From Myxococcales bacterium (GTDB taxonomy: Bacteria > Myxococcota_A > Polyangia > Polyangiales > DASUME01): a stretch of 64,000 bases of DNA. The DNA is taken from the NCBI GenBank assembly GCA_047601445.1, contig JASGJH010000001.1, forward strand, positions 4,448,001-4,512,000, written 5' to 3'. The notes below the pieces were generated by a model. The model made no database searches and was not told the origin of the DNA. It saw nothing but the letters and a program-made list of their open reading frames with translations. Within the stretch, counting starts at the first letter, position 1; each line of letters starts with the position of its first letter. The translations under genes and the position numbers were made by a program. Below, piece by piece: positions 35,159 through 52,606 of the stretch.

Positions 35159-37093
35159 CTACGGGGTCTGCTTGGACAGCTCCTCGTCCGGATCGTCTGC
35201 CCAGGCGCTCACCCAGGTGCCCTCGCGCTCCACGGTGCGCAAAAAGGCGTCGTAGTAATCGTGGCCGCCGAGCGTGGCGCTGTCGCCGAGCACCAGGAGA
35301 AAGCGCTTGGCGCGCGTGAGCGCCACGTTCATACGGCGAATGTCGGTGAGAAAGCCGAGGGCGCGGTCGGGGTTGCTGCGCACGAGGTCGACGATGATGG
35401 CCTCTTTCTCACGGCCTTGAAAGCCATCGACCGTTCCGATCTCCAGGCCCTGCCCTCGCTCCTCCGCGAGCAGGCTGCGCAGCAGCCGGGCCTGGGCCTC
35501 GTAGGGTGTGATCACCGCGACCTGGTCGGGAGCGAGACCGCGACGCAAGAGACGCTTGAGCTCGGCTGCCGCGCGCTCTGCCTGCTGCGGATTGCGGGAG
35601 CTTGGGTCATTGCTGGCGTGCTCTTCCTCCCAGCCCCGACCGGCGCTGTCGATGAACACCAGAACGCCCGGCCTCAGGGAGTCGGGGCGCATACCGAGCT
35701 CTTCGAGCGTGTGCTGGGCGACCGACGGCGTCGCCAGCAGCTGCCCCTGGTACATGCTCTGAGAGGGGAAGTGCATCAGCGTCTCGTGCATGCGGTGCTG
35801 CACGCGCAACAGCGCCACGAGCTCCGGCTGCATGGTCGCCACGCGCTCGAACCAGGTGCTGGCCAGGCCATTGTGCGCCGCTTCCTCGTCGATCACCGTG
35901 GGAGGAAGCTGCATCGGATCGCCAGCGAGCACGGCCTTGGGTGCCTTCAGCAGCGCGATCAGGGACATCGGATCGGGCGCCTGCGTAGCTTCGTCGATCA
36001 CCACGCGATCCACCGGGAAGCGCTGCATGAGCTTGGAATCGGCCCCTGCGCAGGTGGCACAGATCACCTTCGCCTGGGCAAGCACCAGGTCCTGCGCCGA
36101 GGCGAGCAGCGCGCGTGCGTCACCGATCAAGCGCGAAGCCTCTTGCAGCATGCCGCGTCGCTCGCGGTAGGTGATGGCGCCGCGTGCCAGGCGCTTGTCT
36201 GCGGTGCGCCGCAGCTGCTCTGCCTCTCGGTTCCAGGTCCTGGCCAGCTTCGAAGCGTCACTGACTTCCACCAGGGCATCCAGTGTTGCACCCTCGACTT
36301 CGGGCGAGACTCGCGCTGGATGCCCGAGACGAACCAGGGGAACACGATGCGCGATCAGGCGCTCGGCCAGGTTGTCGACCGCGGTGTTGCTGGCCGCCGT
36401 CACCAACACCCGCTCGCCTCGCTGCACGCACTGACGGATCACCTCGACGAGTGTGCGCGTCTTGCCGGTCCCTGGCGGGCCGTGGATAAGGGAGAGCGGC
36501 GCGGCGGCGAGGGCGAGCGAGACCGCGACGCGTTGAGGCGGATTGAGCTCGCCATCGAGAAACGTGGGCTCGGAAGCTTGCGACAGCTTCGACGTTCCCC
36601 GCAAGAGCGCCTCACGCAGGATCGCTTCGGGCGAGCCCGTGCGCGCTGCGATGAGCCGCGTGATCGCGCGCTCTCCACGATCAAAGGTGGACTCGGGGGC
36701 CTCACGGTCTAGCTGAAATCCGCCGTCCCAGATCCGTTCGGGCACGTCGCCATCGACGACGAGCGCGAGCTTGCCCCTGGCGCGGCGCGAGACCACCGCG
36801 GAGATCGCTTCGGGCTCATCGGGCGCCTGCCACCAGAGGCTCACCGGTTCGCCGTTGGAGATGCGGACATCGTCCAGATCGATCGAGCCGCGTGTCTCCA
36901 GCCACAAGCGCAAGCGGCCCCCTGCCACCGCTTCGGCGTCGCTCACGTGCAAGTCCTCGAGTGCAAGGCCGCGCTCCACGCGCTCCGCGAGCGACAGCGT
37001 GCTTCGCTCCTGCCGAAAGCGCTCGCGGGTCGCCAAGCGCTCGCGCAGCCACAGGGCCTTGAGCCGCTCTAGGGTGAAGTCAGGAGGTGCCAC
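35159..37093 (-). CDS. IGHMBP2/UPF1-like superfamily 1B helicase
   Basis: HGPPGTGKT, ASNTAVDNL, DEATQ, GDPMQLPP, QHRM, TVDGFQGREKE, RRMNVALTRAK. Confidence 0.93.
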   Translation of the reverse strand: MAPPDFTLERLKALWLRERLATRERFRQERSTLSLAERVERGLALEDLHVSDAEAVAGGRLRLWLETRGSIDLDDVRISNGEPVSLWWQAPDEPEAISAVVSRRARGKLALVVDGDVPERIWDGGFQLDREAPESTFDRGERAITRLIAARTGSPEAILREALLRGTSKLSQASEPTFLDGELNPPQRVAVSLALAAAPLSLIHGPPGTGKTRTLVEVIRQCVQRGERVLVTAASNTAVDNLAERLIAHRVPLVRLGHPARVSPEVEGATLDALVEVSDASKLARTWNREAEQLRRTADKRLARGAITYRERRGMLQEASRLIGDARALLASAQDLVLAQAKVICATCAGADSKLMQRFPVDRVVIDEATQAPDPMSLIALLKAPKAVLAGDPMQLPPTVIDEEAAHNGLASTWFERVATMQPELVALLRVQHRMHETLMHFPSQSMYQGQLLATPSVAQHTLEELGMRPDSLRPGVLVFIDSAGRGWEEEHASNDPSSRNPQQAERAAAELKRLLRRGLAPDQVAVITPYEAQARLLRSLLAEERGQGLEIGTVDGFQGREKEAIIVDLVRSNPDRALGFLTDIRRMNVALTRAKRFLLVLGDSATLGGHDYYDAFLRTVEREGTWVSAWADDPDEELSKQTP

Positions 37094-41460: not shown

Positions 41461-44400
41461 ATGAAGAAATCACCTGAGGTGGAGACACCGGAAGCCTGGG
41501 ACCTGAGTCGCGTTCGGCTCACGGTACAGGCCGTATCCGACGGCGCCGACGTTGGCGCGGCAACTCGCCTGTCGTCGAGACACGTTGGCTACCACCTTCA
41601 AGCGGGCAGAATTCTCGGATGGCTAGCTGGCGACAACAAGCACCCGACAGTCACCGATGCGGGACGAGCGCTCCTTGCAGCGCCACGAGACTCCGCTCAG
41701 GAAGCCGAGGCGCTTCGCTCCGCCGTTTCCGAATGCGCTGCCGTCAAGGTCGTCGTGGGGGAGCGCTTCAGTGGGATAACGTTCGAGGAGCTGGTCGCGG
41801 CTCTCGAAAGTAGCCCGCTAACCGGACTTGCGCGATCAACGGCCAAGAAGCGGGCCGCGGCGTTGCTGCGATGGCGTGACCGAACTCAGAGCGCTACGCC
41901 CGAGCTACCGTCCCAGGCAGAGAGCGCGCGGTGTGAACGCATACTTGTTCTTCAGTTCAGCGACATCCACACCAAAGACCACGCCGATCGCCAAAGGCTC
42001 GAGCACCGGCTATCCAGAGCGATATCGGCAGTAGCTGCACGGCCCGAAATCTATGGAATACGAGAATGCCTCGTGATCATATCCGGCGACATCTCGTACT
42101 CGGGGACGACAAGCCAGTTCGAACTCGCAAGCAGCGCACTGGAAAGCGCGCTTGGCAAGCTCAAGAGCCGCCTTTCTCTAAACGATGTCCAGGTCGTAGT
42201 CACCCCAGGCAACCACGACTGCGACTTTACCGTCGAGTCAAAGGCACGCGGAAAGCTGATCTCGTCAGTAGATCCGGCCGATGTAGACGTTTCATACGTT
42301 GAGGCATGCACAAGTACCCAAACAAGTTTCTGGAAGTTCGCATCGTTTTGGCACACCGGGCCGACGAGAAGCGTCGAAAAGAAAGTGGCAATGGAGATCC
42401 ACAGGATCTCCATTGCTGGGCGGACGATTCATGTCAACTCGTTGAACACTGCCTGGATGTCGACCATAGATGAGAAGCAGGGTGCACTCGTCTTTCCGAG
42501 TTCTGGAATCACAGCATTGCGAGCGCCATCGCCTGCTCCTGACGTCGTGATTACGGTTGGCCACCATGGCTACAACTGGTTTGAAGCCAACAACGCACGT
42601 GCCCTACGGACATCTGTCGAGACCTGCTCCGACATCCTCTTCAGTGGGCACGAGCATATGGCAGACAGCACGCTGAAGCTCGGATCCGCCGGCGACACCT
42701 CTTGGCATATCGAAGGCGGAGTCTTGAACGACAGCACCACCGCTGAGAACAGCTCGTTTAATGCGGTGATTCTGGACATAGCGGGAGGAGAACTTCGGGC
42801 TCTGTCGTTCCGGTGGAACGATGCAGACGACATGTATGTCATCGACCGTGAATCGTCACCCGTTGCATTCCAGCGCAACCAGTTGCGAATGAGGAGCGAA
42901 TTCCAGCTCAACCAAGCCTTCCAAGCGGCGTTGAACGACCCCGGAGAATCGTATCAGCATCCGAGAAAGTCTCCGATTCGGCTCCAGGATCTCTTTGTCT
43001 ACCCAAACCTGGAGGAGCGCGTTCACGAGAAGCACGCAGATGTCGCGCGACTAATCAGGACGCCTATCGATTTCATACTGCGAGAGCAATGCGTCCTGGT
43101 TCTTGCGCCTGAACGCGCAGGCAAGACGGCAATGGCACGCATGCTTTTCTCCGATCTATACAGGCTTGGATTCGTGCCGGTACTGATTGACGGGCGCCAA
43201 CTCGACAACCCGGCACCCGAGCGCGTCAACGCCAGAGCCGACGAATCGTTCGTTGAAGGCTACGACAGGGCGCTTCTTGAACGCTTTCGACAGCTCGACC
43301 CTGCCAAGCGGGTCTGCATCGTGGACGATCTTCACCGTTCTCCCCTCAACATCGCGGCCAAGGACAAGGCAATCGGAGTATTGGCAAGTTTTGCGGATAT
43401 GGTCGTAGTGTTCACCGATGAAAACTTCGACGTCGCAGCGGTCAGCGGCCCTACTCAAAGCTCCCATCTCTGGGATTTCTCGCATTGCACGATGCTCCCT
43501 TTGGGACACCGGGTGAGGTACGACTTAGTGTCGCGATGGTGCAATCTCGGGCGGGGCCATGGCGACGACCCCGATGCAGTTTCCCGAGAAACCGAGCGTC
43601 GCGACAGGACCGTAACACGTCTAATTGGCCAGAACTTTTTGCCTGCATATCCAGTCTTTGTCCTGCTCTGTTTACAGCAGCTGGAGATCAAGGCTCCTGA
43701 GAGCAACCTCGGATCATTTGGCCATCTCTACGAGGCGCTACTCACGCGCAACCTGATAAGCGGAGGCTCATCCTCGGGAATGGACCTGGATGCAAAGCAG
43801 CAGTTTCTTTCCCATTTCGCTTTCCACCTATTTGAGAGCGGCTCCGAAAGCACTGACAGGACTGCTTTCAATTCGTGTTACGACGAGTACTGCGAGCGAT
43901 TCCACGTTCGCTTTTCACTCGAACAACTTGAGAAGGAGCTGCTTGCCAGCCTAGTATTCGAGGTAAAATCCGGGCGGTATTGCTTCAAGTATCAGTACGC
44001 ATACCTATTTTTTGTTGCCAGGTATCTGCGAGATCGTTTGGACGAGACGAGGATTCGGGGCATCGTCGTTGAACTTTGCCGCAAGCTTCATCACGAGCAC
44101 TCAGCTAACATCCTCCTCTTCCTCTGTCATCTTTCTAAGCACCCATTCGTGCTGGACACTCTCCTGGAGGCGGCGCGGTCCTTGTTCTCCGACGGCATGC
44201 CCCTGGACATGGAAACGGCTCTTTCTCCGATTCACCAGAGGGCGGAGCCACGCACACTACGCCTGGAAGGCGGCGATCATCGCGAGAATCGACGCGCACT
44301 GCGCGATATCCGAGATCAAGGCGAACGCTCACGCGGCGACCGAATCGATCACGACGGATTGCCACCAGAGGTTATGACGTTCACCGCAGCCTACAAGACT

Positions 44401-44994
44401 GTTCACATTTTGGGCCAAGTACTCCGTGGGTTCCCTGGCTCGATTCCTGGAGACAAGAAGCTGGAGATTGCCTCCGAGTGCTACTCTCTCGGGCTGCGCT
44501 CGACACGCGCGCTGATGGAAATGATCATCGCTTCTCGCGAGGAAATCGAGGCCGGCTTGTGCGAGGTAATCGGGAGTCGACGGCCTGGACTTCGTGACGA
44601 TAGCGACAAGCTGCAAAACGCTGCGCGACGCATGCTTTTTGACCTTTGCGAGTCGATGTGTTTCGGGACCATTCAGCACATTTCAGACGCTGTTGGCCTG
44701 CAGACACTCTCACGGACCTACGACGAGGTCTTAAAGAAGCACAGCCCGATTTCATATCGCATCGTCGACCTATCCGTTCACCTAGACCATTTTGACGAGT
44801 TTCCGCAAACCCAACTTGATGGGCTACTACGTGACGCCAAGGGAAAGGTTCTTCCCATGAACCTGATCGGAAGACTGGTCTGGCGCCACATGTACCTCTT
44901 TCCTGTTAATCCAAGACTGATTCAGTCTCTGTGCAGCAAGCTGAACATTCAGTTCACCCTCGCCCTCAAGTCTTCGGGCAAGGGCCGAAGCTAG
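41461..44994 (+). CDS. calcineurin-like metallophosphoesterase fused to a STAND-like NTPase and helical C-terminus (putative defence protein)
   Basis: SDIH, SGD, PGNHD, GHH, GHEH; then LFVYPNL, variant Walker A APERAGKT, Walker B IVDD; N-terminal ~150-aa wHTH-like region. Confidence 0.82.
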   Translation: MKKSPEVETPEAWDLSRVRLTVQAVSDGADVGAATRLSSRHVGYHLQAGRILGWLAGDNKHPTVTDAGRALLAAPRDSAQEAEALRSAVSECAAVKVVVGERFSGITFEELVAALESSPLTGLARSTAKKRAAALLRWRDRTQSATPELPSQAESARCERILVLQFSDIHTKDHADRQRLEHRLSRAISAVAARPEIYGIRECLVIISGDISYSGTTSQFELASSALESALGKLKSRLSLNDVQVVVTPGNHDCDFTVESKARGKLISSVDPADVDVSYVEACTSTQTSFWKFASFWHTGPTRSVEKKVAMEIHRISIAGRTIHVNSLNTAWMSTIDEKQGALVFPSSGITALRAPSPAPDVVITVGHHGYNWFEANNARALRTSVETCSDILFSGHEHMADSTLKLGSAGDTSWHIEGGVLNDSTTAENSSFNAVILDIAGGELRALSFRWNDADDMYVIDRESSPVAFQRNQLRMRSEFQLNQAFQAALNDPGESYQHPRKSPIRLQDLFVYPNLEERVHEKHADVARLIRTPIDFILREQCVLVLAPERAGKTAMARMLFSDLYRLGFVPVLIDGRQLDNPAPERVNARADESFVEGYDRALLERFRQLDPAKRVCIVDDLHRSPLNIAAKDKAIGVLASFADMVVVFTDENFDVAAVSGPTQSSHLWDFSHCTMLPLGHRVRYDLVSRWCNLGRGHGDDPDAVSRETERRDRTVTRLIGQNFLPAYPVFVLLCLQQLEIKAPESNLGSFGHLYEALLTRNLISGGSSSGMDLDAKQQFLSHFAFHLFESGSESTDRTAFNSCYDEYCERFHVRFSLEQLEKELLASLVFEVKSGRYCFKYQYAYLFFVARYLRDRLDETRIRGIVVELCRKLHHEHSANILLFLCHLSKHPFVLDTLLEAARSLFSDGMPLDMETALSPIHQRAEPRTLRLEGGDHRENRRALRDIRDQGERSRGDRIDHDGLPPEVMTFTAAYKTVHILGQVLRGFPGSIPGDKKLEIASECYSLGLRSTRALMEMIIASREEIEAGLCEVIGSRRPGLRDDSDKLQNAARRMLFDLCESMCFGTIQHISDAVGLQTLSRTYDEVLKKHSPISYRIVDLSVHLDHFDEFPQTQLDGLLRDAKGKVLPMNLIGRLVWRHMYLFPVNPRLIQSLCSKLNIQFTLALKSSGKGRS

Positions 44995-45277
44995 GCGCAC
45001 GGGCCGCTCGTGAGCACTTGCGTCGCTGAAGCCTGTACCTTCCTCTGTATGGAGCCCAGGGGCAAAGCACCAACTTAGAGCCGGCAGAGGGCGCCGAGTC
45101 GCATAGAGGCCGGAGCCTTTGAGTTCGAGCACGTTGGATCCAGCGTCGCAGGCAAGCCTGTTCGGAAGCCCTCCAAGATGCCTAAATCGTCAGTTTGGTT
45201 TTCACCCCTATGGTGCAATGACGGAGTTGGTTGAGGAGTGACTCAAAGTCCTAGGAGGATTGAGTGACCTAGGATAG

Positions 45278-45465
45278 GGTACGTACAGGGGCTCACAGGA
45301 GCTCTACACATCCGGCTACATCCTTTGCGGGCCCAATGCGCATTTGGGGTCGTGAGGGTCGCATCGGCGCGGGTCACCGCTCTGACGCATGAAATATACT
45401 TTTTCGCTCGGATGCGGCTTGGTGCGGGAGCTTGCGAGCAAACGCACCATTTTTAATTTGGTGTT
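45278..45465 (+). ncRNA. putative structured ncRNA associated with the downstream reverse transcriptase
   Basis: Consecutive stems at 45288-45305, 45322-45358, 45359-45417 (enclosing hairpin 45369-45380 and U5 at 45400-45404) and 45420-45449. G-U pairs favour the + strand. Ends are approximate. Confidence 0.6.
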
Positions 45466-45471
45466 GTTGCG

Positions 45472-47019
45472 ATGGCATCACGGACTGAGACCCATCTGCT
45501 GAACGCGATCCAGGATGAGGCGCGCAAGCTCATCCTTCGATATCAGCGTTATGCTCACGATCTGCACAACGAGGCCATGAGAATCGGGCGTCGAGCAGGA
45601 AGGGTTCCGCCGAAGGAAGTCAGGCGGCCGGGCTATTGGTCGTTGCCGGCGTTCGATCCATTTCATGTTCGAGCTCAGGCAGGGGGCTACGCGCATGCCC
45701 TCGCCCGTTCCCTTGAGCGAGACACCTACAAGCCGTGGCCCGCCGTTTCGTACGATGTCCCGAAGTCCGATGGCACGATGCGAGAGGTCAACGTGTTCTC
45801 GGTCGCCGACAATGCGTTCTCTCGTCTCGTTTACAAGGGACTGCTCGCAAAGAACTGCACGCGTTTCAGCGCTCGCTGCTATGCCTATAGGACCGACTTG
45901 ACCGTCCATGATGCGATTACACACATCGCGTCAGAGTTTCGTTCAACGCAGCGCCTCTTCATTGCGGAGTTCGATTTCAGCAAGTTTTTCGACTCGATTT
46001 CGCATGACCACATTCTTCGGGTACTAGACAGCGGTCAGTTCCTTCTGACGAATCGAGAGAGACGAATCATTGAGTCGTTTCTACGCACCCCGACTCTAGG
46101 AGTTGCCAGCTGGACGAACCGCTCGGTCCTAGTGCGCGAGCGTGGAATTCCCCAGGGAACTTCCCTCTCTCTGTTCTTGGCCAACGCAGCAGCAAGCCCC
46201 CTCGACAGGACGCTCGAACGCATGAGCGTGGGTTTCGCACGCTATGCCGACGACACAATTATTTGGTCCACCGACTACAGCGCAGTCCTGGGTGCCGTCG
46301 ACGCTTTGTCTGAGGCTGCTCGTCTGATGGGAGTTCAGATAAACCTGAAAAAGTCCGGCGGAATTAGCCTAGTTTGCCCACCAACCTACCGAAGCCCTGA
46401 GCTTGCTTCAAGCAAGGCGTCGGCTGTCTATCTCGGCTACGGGATCTCGCAATCATTCGTTTCGATTAGCCCGAACAATGTAGAGGGCATCAAGAAGCGG
46501 ATAGCCGAGATCGTGTTTCGCAACCTACTCGAGTTTCCATCGAATGGCATACTGAACGCCGCTCGCGTAGACCCTCCTATTGACCGGGACTACTACGTCA
46601 TGATTCTTCAGATCAGACGCTACCTATACGGTGACGTGAGTGAGCTTCAACTTCGTAGATTCTTCAATCGCACAAGCGCAAGGATTCGCTTTAGAGGGCT
46701 CATGTCTTTCTACCCGTTGGTCGACCACTTCGACCAGCTGAAGGCGCTTGATGGCTGGATGGTTCATACGATCGCGACGACGCTCAAACTGCGTGGCGAC
46801 TACTTTGTCAAAGCCGGAGTCCAACTGCCTCGTCCGCACGGCCTGAGTCGTGGTGAACTCCTTACCTTTCAGGGGCGAAGCACAAAGGACACCCCACTTG
46901 ACTTGCGCATTCCGAGCTTCGTACGGATGGCTCGCCTAATGCAGCGGGTTACGAAGTTGCGTGGAGCCAATGCAATCGCGAATCCCAAGTCATTTGAGTA
47001 CTACTGGGGCCTGACGTGA
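45472..47019 (+). CDS. stand-alone reverse transcriptase, group-II-like core, probably defence-associated (DRT9/UG28-like)
   Basis: VPKSDGTMR, CYAYR, DFSKFFDSISH, GIPQGTSLS, RYADD (YADD at 46243-46254), YLGY. No HNH or Cas1 fusion; C-terminus FEYYWGLT. Confidence 0.9.
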   Translation: MASRTETHLLNAIQDEARKLILRYQRYAHDLHNEAMRIGRRAGRVPPKEVRRPGYWSLPAFDPFHVRAQAGGYAHALARSLERDTYKPWPAVSYDVPKSDGTMREVNVFSVADNAFSRLVYKGLLAKNCTRFSARCYAYRTDLTVHDAITHIASEFRSTQRLFIAEFDFSKFFDSISHDHILRVLDSGQFLLTNRERRIIESFLRTPTLGVASWTNRSVLVRERGIPQGTSLSLFLANAAASPLDRTLERMSVGFARYADDTIIWSTDYSAVLGAVDALSEAARLMGVQINLKKSGGISLVCPPTYRSPELASSKASAVYLGYGISQSFVSISPNNVEGIKKRIAEIVFRNLLEFPSNGILNAARVDPPIDRDYYVMILQIRRYLYGDVSELQLRRFFNRTSARIRFRGLMSFYPLVDHFDQLKALDGWMVHTIATTLKLRGDYFVKAGVQLPRPHGLSRGELLTFQGRSTKDTPLDLRIPSFVRMARLMQRVTKLRGANAIANPKSFEYYWGLT

Positions 47020-47495
47020 TGGTAGCGCTGATTGAACCTTCGTAAGATGGGTTGGGTTTGAACTCGAGCGCGGGTTGTCACCGGCATTGGCCCAAAGGCC
47101 TCGCGCGGCGCACTAGGCGTCGAAGCTCTGCAGTTTTGCGCGTGGGCCTCTCGGGTCCGTGGGGCATGCGCCGTTGAACGTTGCGTCGGGGGCGAGGCTC
47201 AAGTCGCTCACGGTCGAGACGGCCCTGTGGCCATCTTGCCGTTTGCGGGCGGTCTCTAGGGTTGGATCGAGGACAGCCTTCTGTCTGAGCTGGCGGGCTC
47301 GGCGGTGCCGAACCGCATTCGCGGAGTCGGTATGGAGAGAAGCCGGTCACTGGGCACTAGCACATTGCGAGATGCTGCGAGGGCAAGCAGAGACGAGTGC
47401 CGAGATCGGGCGGGACTGGATTCAAAGTTGGAAGCAACGGTTTGACCGACATTGGCGTAGACATCGAGGTTTCTCGGCGAGATACACTCAGCTCC

Positions 47496-48248
47496 ATGCA
47501 TGAGTCAGATGCCGCAGACATCGAGTCCCAAGCCACTCAAGACATGCTAATGCGCCACTCGGTTCTGATGCTGTTCGCCAGCCGAACTACTGGAGAGTGG
47601 TCTCAGGGAACTGGCACGTTCTTCGAGACTGATCGGCATCACTATCTCGTCACCGCAGCTCACGTTGCCGAGGACTTAGGGGCAGATGATCTTCGGTTCG
47701 GGCTGATTCTGCAGCCCGGGGGGAGCAAGGCAATCTTCGAGCCGGAGAGGCCGGACCACTGGATTTTAGGGAATCAGGCGACGCGCGATGTTGCGGCGTT
47801 CCGACTTGCGCGTGGGGACGTGCAGGAGATCAAACGTGCCGGATTTCGATTCCTCAGGGTCTCCGACTTCGCCGACGGCGAGTTCGGGCGATTTGCGATC
47901 TACGGCTACCCAAAGGCCATGACAACAATTGACCATCATGGCCTGCACAAGGATTCGGTGTGGCTCGAAGTACCTGCGTATGAGGGCTCCGAACGGTGCG
48001 GGAAGAATGAGTTCCTACTGAAGTGGCACGACGGCATTGATTTTCATCTGGGCGGCGTAAGTGGTTCGCCGGTGTGGGCCGTCCTCGAACAGAGACCAGG
48101 CTCCATTTGGGGCGGACCAACGGCTCACTACAAATTCTGCGGTATCCAGATCAGCATAAAGAAGGGCGAATGGATCAAATTCGTGCAGGCGTTTGTGGTG
48201 GGAGAAATGCTCGATCTTGCAGATCGCATCCAGATCATTCGGAAGTAG
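47496..48248 (+). CDS. cytoplasmic trypsin-like serine protease
   Basis: GTG, VTAAHV, DVA, GYP, GGVSGSP; no signal peptide. Start uncertain (ORF opens at 47397). Confidence 0.8.
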   Translation: MHESDAADIESQATQDMLMRHSVLMLFASRTTGEWSQGTGTFFETDRHHYLVTAAHVAEDLGADDLRFGLILQPGGSKAIFEPERPDHWILGNQATRDVAAFRLARGDVQEIKRAGFRFLRVSDFADGEFGRFAIYGYPKAMTTIDHHGLHKDSVWLEVPAYEGSERCGKNEFLLKWHDGIDFHLGGVSGSPVWAVLEQRPGSIWGGPTAHYKFCGIQISIKKGEWIKFVQAFVVGEMLDLADRIQIIRK

Positions 48249-49143: not shown

Positions 49144-52100
49144 TCACGAGCACCCCATGCTCGCCCCGCAATTCAGGCACTTATAACAAGCCCCGTTCCG
49201 CACCGTAATGTGCCCGCACGTATCGCACATCGGCGCGTCCCCCATCATCTCACCCAAGTGCTGGTCGAGCACGCTGCTAGCACCCGCCCCATACTCCTTC
49301 GCACTCGCGCTCGAGCTCGAAGGCGGCGGCGGCAAGCTACTCGCTTCACCCGGTGAGTACTGATGCACCGCCCCCACGTCAGTCGGATCCTTCATGTCCG
49401 CCTGAACTTCATCCGGCGGCACATGCGCAAGGTCATACCGCTTGATGTACTCCACACCCAGCGTGCGGAAGATGTAGTCGATGATCGAGGTGGCGAACTT
49501 GATGTTCGGGTGCCCCTCAACCGGACCCTGCGGCTCGAAGCGCGTGAACGTGAACTGCTCGACATAGCTGCCGAGTGGCACGCCGTGCTGGAGACCCATG
49601 GACACGCTGATGGCGAAGCAGTTCATGAGTGAGCGGAAGGCTGCGCCTTCCTTGTGCATGTCGACGAAGATTTCGCCGAGCTCGCCGCTGTCGTACTCAC
49701 CGGTGCGCAGGAAGACCTTGTGGCCGGCCACGCGGGCTTCCTGGGTGAAGCCGTGGCGCTTCTTGGGCAAGCGGTGACGAACGGTGGGAGGGGGCGAGAG
49801 GCCTTCCTTGAGCTTGGCTGCCGGACGCGCTGCGACGGCGGGCACGGGGGCCGGGGCCGGGGCTTCGATCTTGGCGACGGCCTTGGTCTCGGACTTTTCC
49901 TTCTTGTCTTCGGTGCCGCTGTTGAGCGGTTGGCTGAGCTTGCAGCCATCGCGGTAGAGGGCGACTGCCTTGAGGCCGAGCTTCCAGCCCTGCATGTACA
50001 CGTCGGCTACGTCTTCTACCGTCGCGTCATTGGGCAGGTTGACGGTCTTGGAAATGGCGCCGCTCAAGAAGGGCTGAGCGGCGGCCATCATGCGCACGTG
50101 GGACATCGGAGCGAGGAATCGCTTGCCCTTCTTGCCGCAGCGGTTCGCGCAGTCGAACACGGGCAGGTCTTCGTCTCGAAGGTGGGGGGCACCTTCGATC
50201 GTCTGACGACCGAGCACCGTGTCGTTCAGCTCTTCGATCTGTTCGGGGGAAAGACCGAAGTGCTTGAGGAGGTTGAAACCAGGCTTGGCAGCCAACTCGG
50301 CGGGAACTCCGAGTCGGTCATAGGCTTCCTTACCGATGACCCAGAGCGCGAGGGCCTGACCCACGTCGAACACGCCCACGAGAGCCTTCTCGGCCTTGGC
50401 GATTTCGGCGTCGGAGAGTCCCTTTTCCGCGAGGATCTTGCGGCTGAGGTGTGGCGCACCCGTGAAGGTGTTGGTGCCGCTGATGAAGGCCACGATGTCC
50501 GCGGTCTGCGCGTCGGAGTAACCGAGGCGCTTGAGGGCGTCGGGCACGGAGTTGTTGACGATCTTGAAGTAACCGCCGCCGGCGAGCTTCTTGAACTTCA
50601 CGAGCGCGAAGTCGGGCTCGATGCCGGTGGTGTCGCAATCCATCAAGAGACCGATGGTGCCGGTGGGCGCGAGCACGGTGGCCTGCGCGTTGCGGTAACC
50701 GCTCTTCTCCCCCGCGCGCACGGCGAGGTCCCAGTCGTAGGCGCCCGCGGCGAGCACGGAGCTGATGACGTCGTCGGCGGCGCCGCCCTGGGCCTGGAAG
50801 TCGTTCTGCCAGGTGTGGGCTGCATTCTGGTGCTTGCGCATCACGCGCAGCATGGGGTCACGGTTCGGGGCGTAACCCGCGAACGGTCCCTTGCTCTCGG
50901 CCATCTGGGCGCTCACGGCGTAGGCGTGGCCGCACAGGATGGCGGTGAGTCCGGCGCACAGCGCGCGGCCCTCTTCGCTGTCGTAGGGGATGCCGAGGCG
51001 CATCAGCAGCGTGCCGAGGTTGGCGTAGCCGAGACCGAGCGGACGGTACTCGTGGCTGTTCTGGGCGATCTTCTCGGTGGGGTAGCTCGAGTAATCGACC
51101 AGGATTTCCTGGGCGATGAAGAGCACGCGGATGGCCTGGCGGTAGCCCTCGATGTCGAACTTGCCGTCGTCGGACAAGAACTTGGTGAGGTTGATGGACG
51201 ACAGGTTGCAGGCCGTGTCGTCGAGGAACATGTACTCGCTGCAGGGGTTGGACGCGTTGATGCGATCGGTGCCCGCGGCGGTGTGCCAGTCGTTGATGGT
51301 GGTGTCGTACTGCACGCCCGGATCGGCGCAGGCCCAGGCGGCCTCGGCGAGCTTCTTCCACAGGTCGCGCGCCTTGAGGGTGCTGGCGACCTTGCCGGTG
51401 GTGCGCTCGTAGGTGCGCCACTCGCCGTCCTGCTCCACGGCCTTCATGAAGGCGTCCGTGACGCGCACGGAGTTGTTGGAGTTCTGGCCGGCGACGGTGT
51501 GATAGGCCTCGCCGTTGAAGTCACTGGAGTAGCCAGCCTTGATGAGGGCCGCCACCTTGCGCTCCTCGCGCACCTTCCAGGTGATGAAGTCCTCGATCTC
51601 CGGGTGGTCCATGTCGAGGCACACCATCTTGGCGGCGCGACGCGTGGTGCCGCCCGACTTGGTGGCGCCCGCAGCGCGGTCGAACACCTCGAGGAAGCTC
51701 ATGAGGCCGGAGCTGGTGCCGCCGCCCGAGAGCTTCTCGGTGATGCCGCGGATCTTGGAGAAGTTGGAGCCGGTGCCGGAGCCGTACTTGAAGAGGCGGG
51801 CTTCGTTCTTGATGAGGTCGTAGATGCCCATCAGGTCGTCCGAGACGCTCTGGATGAAGCAGGCGGAGCACTGGGGCTGCTCGTAGGCGTTCTTGGTCTC
51901 GGCGACCTTGCCGACGACGGGATCGAAGGCGTAGCTGCCGCCCGAGCCTTCGATGCCATAGCGCTGGAAGAGGCCGCAGTTGAACCACACGGGCGAGTTG
52001 AAGGCGCCCTTCTGGTTGATGAGGATGGAGGAGAGCTCGGCCTCGAAGGTGTCGGCGTCTTCGGTGGAGGCGAAGTAGCCGCCGAACTTCTCACCGGCCT

Positions 52101-52437
52101 CGCGGATGGTGTGCGAGACGCGGTAGACGAGGTCGCGGGCGGAGGTCTCGCCGCGCTTGGCGTCGCCGTTGATGCCGGCCTTGCGGAAGTACTTGGAGAC
52201 GGCGATATCGGTGGCGAGCTGGGACCAGCTGGCGGGGATCTCCGCGTTCTTCAGCTGGAAGACGACGGTGCCGTCCGGGTCGGTGATGACGCTGTCGCGG
52301 TTCTCGTACTTGACCTCATTGAGGGGGTCGACGCCCGGACGCGTGAACATGCGAGCGAGCACCAGGCCCTTGCCGAGGCCCGAGTCACGAGCTGCCTTGG
52401 CGCCGCGACCGTTCGTCTTCTCCGTGTTTTTCTCCAC
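49144..52437 (-). CDS. nrdJ: vitamin B12-dependent (class II) ribonucleotide reductase
   Basis: [46 protein letters not shown]-terminal TSCPD-like domain and CxxC...CxxC...GCS. Start GTG 52437 follows GGAGG (ORF opens at 52461). Confidence 0.96.
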
Positions 52438-52606
52438 TTCGACCTCCCCTTCCTCTTCCACGAGTTCCCGAAAAAACCCCAGCCTGTCCCCAGCTCCAGA
52501 AACAGACGTTTTTCTTATTTATTCCAAGCGTTTAGATACGTGCGTTGCGCTCTGATTACAGACTTATTCAGAGGCGCGAATTCCCAAAGCGCGGCTAGGT
52601 CTGGTT

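Follow-up and report, generated by a model that had tools for sequence, protein, structure and literature searches.

Does a solitary reverse transcriptase (RT) gene in a myxobacterial genome, preceded by a structured RNA, belong to a DRT9 (UG28) anti-phage system, and how closely would such a system resemble those already characterised? The gene lies in a stretch of 64,000 nucleotides (nt) from a Myxococcales bacterium (contig JASGJH010000001.1, positions 4,448,001 to 4,512,000), which we call the window and whose own numbering we use throughout. A preliminary description, made from the letters of the DNA, had proposed a DRT9/UG28-like system of an RT and a noncoding RNA (ncRNA) at this site, with the caution that it might represent an undescribed sister clade. 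Our analysis indicates that the locus is very probably a two-component DRT9 anti-phage module composed of an RT and a structured ncRNA. This conclusion is based on the family to which the RT belongs, on the RNA's homology and the covariation of its structure, and on the presence and positions of a uridine tract, the YADD motif and a C-terminal tyrosine pair. A poly-dA product, protein priming, assembly into an oligomer and a defence phenotype would follow by analogy with the characterised homologue.

The reverse transcriptase is a full-length member of the DRT9 family

The RT is encoded at 45472-47019 on the plus strand by an intact open reading frame (ORF) of 515 amino acids (aa) with an ATG start. 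It is separated by a 477-bp gap from the preceding 1177-codon ORF, which stops at 44994. The gap contains no plus-strand ORF of at least 60 aa; it is overlapped on the minus strand by one ORF of 101 aa, the others being chance-sized (26-47 aa). The protein has PQG at residue 227, YADD at residues 258-261 and YLGY at residue 320, and its C-terminus reads ...FEYYWGLT, in which Y510 and Y511 form the tyrosine pair. Its YADD aligns with the YADD of all homologues displayed. In a Pfam search RVT_1 was the sole family found, with no endonuclease, Cas1 or maturase domain, and a motif search of the 515 residues found neither NAxxH nor VTG, the motifs of retron RTs. The preliminary description was therefore accurate in its account of an intact, unfused RT with these motifs and this tail, lacking the retron signatures and following a gap free of ORFs above chance size.

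Profile searches identified the protein as a DRT9 RT. The PADLOC Drt9 model scored 558.7 bits (E 2.8e-168), aligning residues 6-510 with model positions 2-487 of 488, and the runner-up PADLOC models reached at most 104 bits. Seven homologues, sampled from all subclades, scored 566-702 bits with the same Drt9 model, which puts the window RT at the low end of the family, yet well inside it. In a phmmer search of the Protein Data Bank (PDB), the best match was the 499-aa DRT9 RT, the chain solved in entries 9ioa, 9iob, 9nlv, 9nlx, 9vku and 9vma (346 bits, E 2.3e-102, residues 6-511 on 4-497). This full-length similarity takes in the N- and C-terminal extensions. Next after DRT9 in the PDB came group II intron RTs at about 67 bits. 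NCBIfam models for group II RT/maturases, Drt3a, retron St85 and Drt2 all scored far under their cut-offs.

The window RT lies in a divergent subgroup of DRT9

A scan of genome contigs yielded 78 loci with about 55 near-full-length DRT9-type RTs, and from a scan of metagenome contigs the best 80 of 160 relatives were retained. Among these 78 genome loci and best 80 metagenome relatives, the RTs closest to that of the window are 44-54% identical to it and come from Plesiocystis pacifica, Acidobacteriota metagenome-assembled genomes and metagenome contigs. The best-scoring homologues in the genome collection are 35-49% identical. In a quick maximum-likelihood tree of 50 rows, a canonical set of 33 enterobacterial, Bacillota and Bacteroidota sequences split off with a support of 100 in the Shimodaira-Hasegawa-like approximate likelihood ratio test (SH-aLRT). 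The window RT falls outside this set, on a long single branch (0.84) near the Plesiocystis locus L001, the locus L084 and an 11-row clade that we refer to as Acidobacteriota-type. Judged from sequence, the RT appears to lie in a divergent, uncharacterised subgroup inside DRT9. The earlier caution about a sister clade thus held in part: the subgroup is divergent, and a model of the canonical RNA is blind to the window RNA, but the subgroup appears to sit within DRT9.

A homologous structured RNA precedes the RT gene

The preliminary description had also drawn attention to RNA structure at the end of the gap, and folding agreed with it. The minimum-free-energy (MFE) fold of 45200-45475 has -103.1 kcal/mol and a z-score of -2.39, with 4 of 200 shuffles equally good. 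For the 171-nt segment 45286-45456, at the end of the gap, the values are -73.5 kcal/mol and -4.35, and none of 200 shuffles folded equally well. The structure consists of a first stem-loop (SL1), a long-range stem (P2), two internal stem-loops and a 3' hairpin, after which comes AUUUUUAA. The same MFE fold pairs part of a uridine tract in a small hairpin, which we regard as an artefact because this loop is unpaired in the family consensus.

We built a covariance model, R2, from 20 Acidobacteriota-type upstream RNAs, leaving out the window and L001. Searched against both strands of the whole window, R2 gave a single match, at 45286-45419, directly upstream of the RT and spanning the full model (1-125), with a score of 25.3 bits and an E-value (1.9e-4) that is rough because calibration was shortened. 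The covariance model from homologues' upstream regions that the preliminary description had suggested singles out this one site. R2 also matches L001 (33.9 bits) and L084 (24.8 bits). Six canonical-clade loci (L007, L009, L012, L020, L092 and L098) gave no R2 match, nor did ten further divergent loci. The 5' end of the RNA at about 45286 lies 8 nt inside the boundary proposed earlier (45278). The features of the module, all on the plus strand, are as follows.

45286-45455, plus strand: DRT9 ncRNA, predicted, with inferred ends (R2 match and MFE fold; 3' end by analogy with canonical loci)
45288-45305, plus strand: SL1, hairpin GGGGCUC-ACAG-GAGCUCU (MFE fold; aligns to SL1 of the Acidobacteriota-type RNAs)
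45309-45316, plus strand: 5' strand of the long-range stem P2 (MFE fold; partner 45406-45414)
45322-45358, plus strand: SL2, a long hairpin (MFE fold and R2; length varies in relatives, with a 25-nt insert relative to the model)
45361-45388, plus strand: SL3, with the conserved GGGUCACC core at 45371-45378 (alignment, R2 and MFE fold; helices 4 and 5 of the 23-sequence alignment)
45389-45405, plus strand: template loop with the UAYUUUU motif; predicted template U5 at 45400-45404
45406-45414, plus strand: 3' strand of P2 (MFE fold and R2)
45420-45454, plus strand: 3' hairpin (45420-45449) followed by U5 (45450-45454), a terminator-like end of the ncRNA (MFE fold)
45472-47019, plus strand: DRT9 (UG28) reverse transcriptase, 515 aa, YADD at residues 258-261, Y510/Y511

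Upstream of the RT, the closest relatives are readily aligned to one another, and their similarity to the window is visible as well. Common to all, from 5' to 3', are SL1, whose core is CUCnAGGAG, a 5' strand rich in GC, a hairpin that varies and the GGGUCACC hairpin, then ACGCA..AAU.UAYUUUU and the 3' strand. RNAalifold predicted 30 pairs in five helices from the 20 Acidobacteriota-type sequences. In an alignment of 23 sequences, 96.9% of cells pair, compared with 30-48% when the partners are slid, and double changes occur at 23 of the 30 pairs; because this alignment was fitted to the model, the counts are favoured, and they back the structure of the family rather than prove the window's own fold. 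No measure was reached by any of 500 shuffles. The 12-bp stem of the relatives that is equivalent to P2 has double changes at 10 of its 12 pairs, and SL1 covaries in both clades.

The canonical clade has the same layout of SL1, long-range stem, internal stem-loops and U-tract loop. From 31 canonical-clade upstream regions we built a second covariance model, R1, which matches 10 of 23 further loci. In the 31-sequence alignment, the A and the four T of CUUAYUUUUA are invariant, as is CCG.G further on. RNAalifold predicted SL1 together with a long-range stem whose closure falls immediately 3' of the U tract, and compensatory changes occur at 11 of 15 predicted pairs.

Two U5 tracts lie upstream of the RT, at 45400-45404 and 45450-45454. 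There are thus two such tracts rather than the one of the preliminary description. The first is contained in UACUUUUU within the template loop and is aligned to the UAYUUUU that is conserved in both clades; the loop aligns with ...AAUCUAYUUUU... of the Acidobacteriota-type RNAs, and its counterpart in the canonical clade is CUUAYUUUUA. By homology, the first U5 would be the template and the second the 3'-terminal U run of the RNA. The 3' hairpin and T-run occupy the same place in canonical-clade loci and in L001. The pattern [CT][TAC]A[CT]TTTT occurs 30-120 nt 5' of the RT start in 38 of 54 genome loci, although its occurrences in L051 and L055 look like chance. Other divergent DRT9-like loci carry variant template-like motifs (CUUCCUUUA; CAUAGUUUUG), in L148 (1300-1480) and in the upstream regions of L080 and L087, and these were missed by both R1 and R2.

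An Rfam search of 44900-47400 at E-values up to 10 returned three chance-level rows only. The canonical loci L009 and L018 and the Acidobacteriota-type locus L002 likewise gave no match at E-values up to 0.01. Since known DRT9 loci are not matched, Rfam appears to have no DRT9 RNA family, and the blank result at the window is uninformative.

Other elements were noted around the RNA. A CCTAGG ... CCTAGG inverted repeat at 45250-45275 on the plus strand forms an 8-bp hairpin just 5' of the predicted ncRNA. Acidobacteriota-type loci (L002-L004, L028 and L079-L147) have in common a TGnTAnnAT block about 10 nt upstream of SL1, which resembles an extended -10 promoter element, so that transcription would begin at SL1; the aligned counterpart of this block in the window is GGATAGGGT. 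A simple promoter scan, covering one promoter type (sigma-70-like), found no promoter-like site. A simple terminator scan flagged two terminator-like sites inside the RT gene, which is chance level, and did not flag the 3' hairpin at 45420-45449, perhaps because its stem is interrupted. A look-up of public sequencing runs covering 45000-47100 listed none, and likewise no source of RNA.

A tyrosine pair at the C-terminus

The characterised DRT9 enzyme is described as having two conserved tail tyrosines, Y496 and Y498, whose mutation causes loss of cDNA synthesis and of defence (PMC12489045, PMC12483538). In the HMMER alignment, Y510 of the window RT is opposite Y496 of the solved RT. We surveyed the tails of 57 homologue frames, of which 5 were short or broken and 52 intact. 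Among the intact tails, YY is the commoner form (37/52), followed by YxY (13/52) and a single Y (2/52), and the YY form is found inside the canonical clade too. In L023, L037, L049, L081 and L147 the RT frame ends early, 21-454 aa from the start of the match; these ends may reflect frameshifts, decay or assembly errors.

Proposed mechanism and alternative readings

In characterised DRT9, the RNA is reported to act as both scaffold and template, and synthesis is primed by tyrosines and yields poly-dA of kilobase length; the complex is a hexamer and the outcome is abortive infection (PMC12483538, PMC12489045). In E. coli, according to the same reports, ExoI restrains poly-dA, and a phage protein specific for the 3' ends of DNA, to which it binds, releases it (PMC12483538, PMC12489045). 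By analogy, a structured ncRNA of about 170 nt (45286-45455) would be transcribed just upstream of the RT, probably together with it. As in the Salmonella enterica and E. coli systems (SenDRT9/EcDRT9), the RNA would wrap the RT as a scaffold and set the U5 at 45400-45404 in the active site. The enzyme would prime on the hydroxyl of its own C-terminal tyrosines, Y510/Y511, and repeated copying of the U tract, by slipping and realigning, could then produce long, protein-linked poly-dA. Build-up of this product on phage infection would be expected to lead to abortive infection.

Several observations weigh against such a direct transfer from the characterised system. The R2 score in the window is modest, and the 23-sequence alignment carries the bias described above. 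With default filters R1 has no match in the window, and turning the filters off yields nothing beyond 10 nt at the second U tract (3.9 bits); nor does R1 match any of the six closest genome loci (L001-L004, L023 and L028). The window P2 has 8 bp compared with 12 bp in relatives, and cmsearch marks four non-standard P2 pairs (eight positions). In the protein, the window subgroup has an insertion of about 15 residues just before PQG (208-221 in the window RT), which all 12 non-canonical rows displayed possess and all 12 canonical rows displayed lack. Y498, at which the characterised enzyme has its second priming tyrosine, falls on W512 of the window RT, whose tail is YY rather than YxY, with the second tyrosine adjacent (Y511) instead of two residues on. 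Finally, the ExoI C-terminal family PF08411 has no match in the host genome, so regulation must differ at least in its ExoI component. These differences could mean that the locus is a DRT9-related system that works unlike SenDRT9, with the fold and the U tract kept and the length or make-up of the product, the oligomer or the triggering and silencing changed. The SH-aLRT support of 100 on the branch that parts the 33 canonical rows from the window subgroup, the distribution of the insertion, the mutual blindness of R1 and R2 in the loci tested, and the lack of a PF08411 match in a host genome that is 98.7% complete are all in keeping with this idea. Yet the features that dictate the product are kept, namely the U tract by the long-range stem, YADD and the tyrosine pair; the Drt9 scores all exceed 550 bits; and the YY tail is shared with members of the canonical clade. 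Moreover, a control search found PF08411 in only 1 of 14 reference genomes, indicating that ExoI is rare outside E. coli-like genomes and that its absence is not special to this host. We therefore consider a departure from the SenDRT9 mode of action improbable.

The shorter, mismatched P2 could alternatively be the mark of a silent or decaying relic, in which the frame is intact but the module does not function because the weak stem misplaces the template or the RNA is not expressed. The gene is single-copy, was not found with the RT query in 40 relatives, and has no sigma-70-like promoter by the simple scan, although that scan was limited to one promoter type. What makes a relic very hard to credit is the state of the locus: an intact 515-codon frame in which no catalytic motif is missing and which the profile covers from end to end, and an RNA that retains every helix along with the GGGUCACC and ACGCA..AAU.UAYUUUU blocks. 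An RT of a mobile group II intron (an RT/maturase) or of a retron is the least probable reading by far. There is weak similarity in the RT domain, but NCBIfam group_II_RT_mat and retron_St85_RT score 117 and 53 bits against curated cut-offs of 300 and 235, and the PDB entry for the GsI-IIC RT scores 67 bits. Rfam found no intron RNA in 44900-47400 at E-values up to 10, the protein has no maturase or endonuclease domain, and NAxxH and VTG are absent. The preliminary description had named grouping with mobile group II intron RTs, together with flanking intron domains, as an outcome that would overturn its proposal; we found instead that DRT9 is the best profile and that the tree groups the RT with sequences from Acidobacteriota and Plesiocystis. 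For practical purposes, a group II intron or retron RT is refuted by these far sub-cut-off scores and the lack of intron RNA.

We therefore favour a DRT9 module: its RT scores 558.7 bits with Drt9 and 346 bits with the solved RT, and its upstream RNA is homologous, as the preliminary description had proposed. The locus opens no new mechanism, since DRT9 was already characterised in 2025 (PMC12483538, PMC12489045). It extends the known range of DRT9 to a host whose genome is large (9.5 Mb) and rich in GC (65%). A more far-reaching idea, which we put forward tentatively and think unlikely, takes the locus as a member of a deep GC-rich branch of DRT9 that spans Myxococcota and Acidobacteriota and is so far uncharacterised, with a rebuilt RNA scaffold, the ~15-residue RT element and hosts that lack the ExoI silencer. 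If true, this branch could have another assembly state or another form of host or phage control over poly-dA accumulation. The DRT9 RNA is traceable into divergent clades only with clade-specific models, which are useful for annotation because Rfam has no family for it. The subgroup is also a possible natural comparison for the essential RNA and protein features of DRT9.

Genomic setting

The host genome is a single contig of 9.5 Mb with 65% GC and is 98.7% complete. Between 42 and 47 kb of the window, GC drops from about 65% to about 55%, a stretch of about 5 kb that holds the DRT9 module and the gene upstream of it. That gene (41461-44994, plus strand) encodes a 1177-aa protein that matches NCBIfam DS8_antiphage with 847.6 bits (cut-off 790) over residues 165-1163, as well as PADLOC PDC-S60 and Pfam Metallophos. 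DS-8 is described as a validated single-protein metallophosphatase-NACHT defence system (PMC13092281). About 164 N-terminal residues of the window protein lie outside the DS8_antiphage model and could represent either a genuine additional domain or a start called too far upstream. When the DS-8-like gene was searched by tblastn against 159 loci (L001-L159, with flanks of 1.5-3 kb), only its own copy (L159) was found. It thus adjoins none of the other DRT9 loci searched and is a neighbour rather than a partner.

Downstream, a 283-aa ORF (47397-48248, plus strand) has a sub-threshold match to Trypsin_2 (22.9 bits; threshold 27.6) and carries a His motif (TAAHV) and a Ser motif (GGVSGSP) of the kind usual in serine proteases. 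PADLOC gave no match for it, and a search of the DRT9 loci returned, besides its own copy, a single match at chance level. Neither Pfam nor PADLOC gave a match to a SLATT partner among the scanned downstream ORFs (at least 72 aa). A ribonucleotide reductase of class II (B12-dependent), which includes a TSCPD domain, is encoded 2 kb downstream (49144-52461, minus strand); its proximity to a dATP-consuming defence system is probably a coincidence. Farther upstream, a superfamily 1 helicase (AAA_11/AAA_12; 35159-37093, minus strand) matches the C-terminal half of PADLOC MkoA (Mokosh) with 289 bits, and could be either a Upf1-like helicase with a housekeeping role or part of another defence gene.

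The RT query found no DRT9 RT in 40 relatives, of which 9 belong to the host's genus and 31 to its order; there were two weak matches to other RT types, both in one genome. The low GC content, the patchy distribution and the defence neighbour together argue for horizontal acquisition, most likely of the module as cargo of a defence island.

Comparison with known systems

The window locus and SenDRT9 belong to the same profile family, and their RTs are alignable end to end. Both consist of a stand-alone RT and an upstream ncRNA of less than 200 nt, with no SLATT partner. The characterised ncRNA is given as 188 nt (PMC12483538, PMC12489045), and its template uridines are placed in an irregular loop and numbered U123-126 in one report (PMC12483538) and U124-127 in the other (PMC12489045). 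In both systems the loop that adjoins the long-range stem carries the U tract, at about nt 115-119 of the window RNA and at 123-127 of the 188 nt as numbered in those reports. A second U run at the 3' end of the RNA is shared as well, and in the characterised RNA this stretch is reported to be dispensable (PMC12483538, PMC12489045). YADD and a C-terminal tyrosine pair are also common to both. Unlike SenDRT9, the window RT has the ~15-residue insertion before PQG and a YY rather than a YxY tail; the primary sequence of its RNA is too different for the canonical-clade model, and its host is GC-rich and has no match to an ExoI-type exonuclease.

The uncharacterised Acidobacteriota-type and Plesiocystis loci (L001-L004, L028, L079-L090, L143 and others) have the same insertion as the window RT and a homologous ncRNA with the GGGUCACC hairpin and the ACGCA..AAUCUAYUUUU blocks. 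The window differs from them in its shorter P2, its longer SL2 and the long single branch (0.84) of its RT. A 3' hairpin and U run before the RT start are found in the window, in Plesiocystis and in the canonical clade, but not in the Acidobacteriota-type loci.

Other UG and Abi systems share parts of this design. DRT2 (UG2) is likewise a class 2 UG RT with an upstream ncRNA that serves as scaffold and template, and the start of reverse transcription is reported to be similarly placed relative to the stems (PMC12483538). Unlike DRT9, DRT2 copies a template of about 120 nt by rolling circle to make a neo gene. The Drt2 profiles score 48.8 bits (PADLOC) and 36 bits (NCBIfam) on the window RT; with an equivalog cut-off of 390 bits for the latter, we rejected a DRT2 assignment. 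DRT10 (UG17) and AbiK are described as making protein-primed DNA with a UG/Abi RT, a trait that the window RT would share by analogy, and UG17 is among its next-best PADLOC profiles (82.8 bits). According to the accounts we drew on, the DRT10 products are tandem repeats, SLATT is the partner of DRT10, and AbiK synthesis is untemplated, unlike the predicted U-tract copying of the window system.

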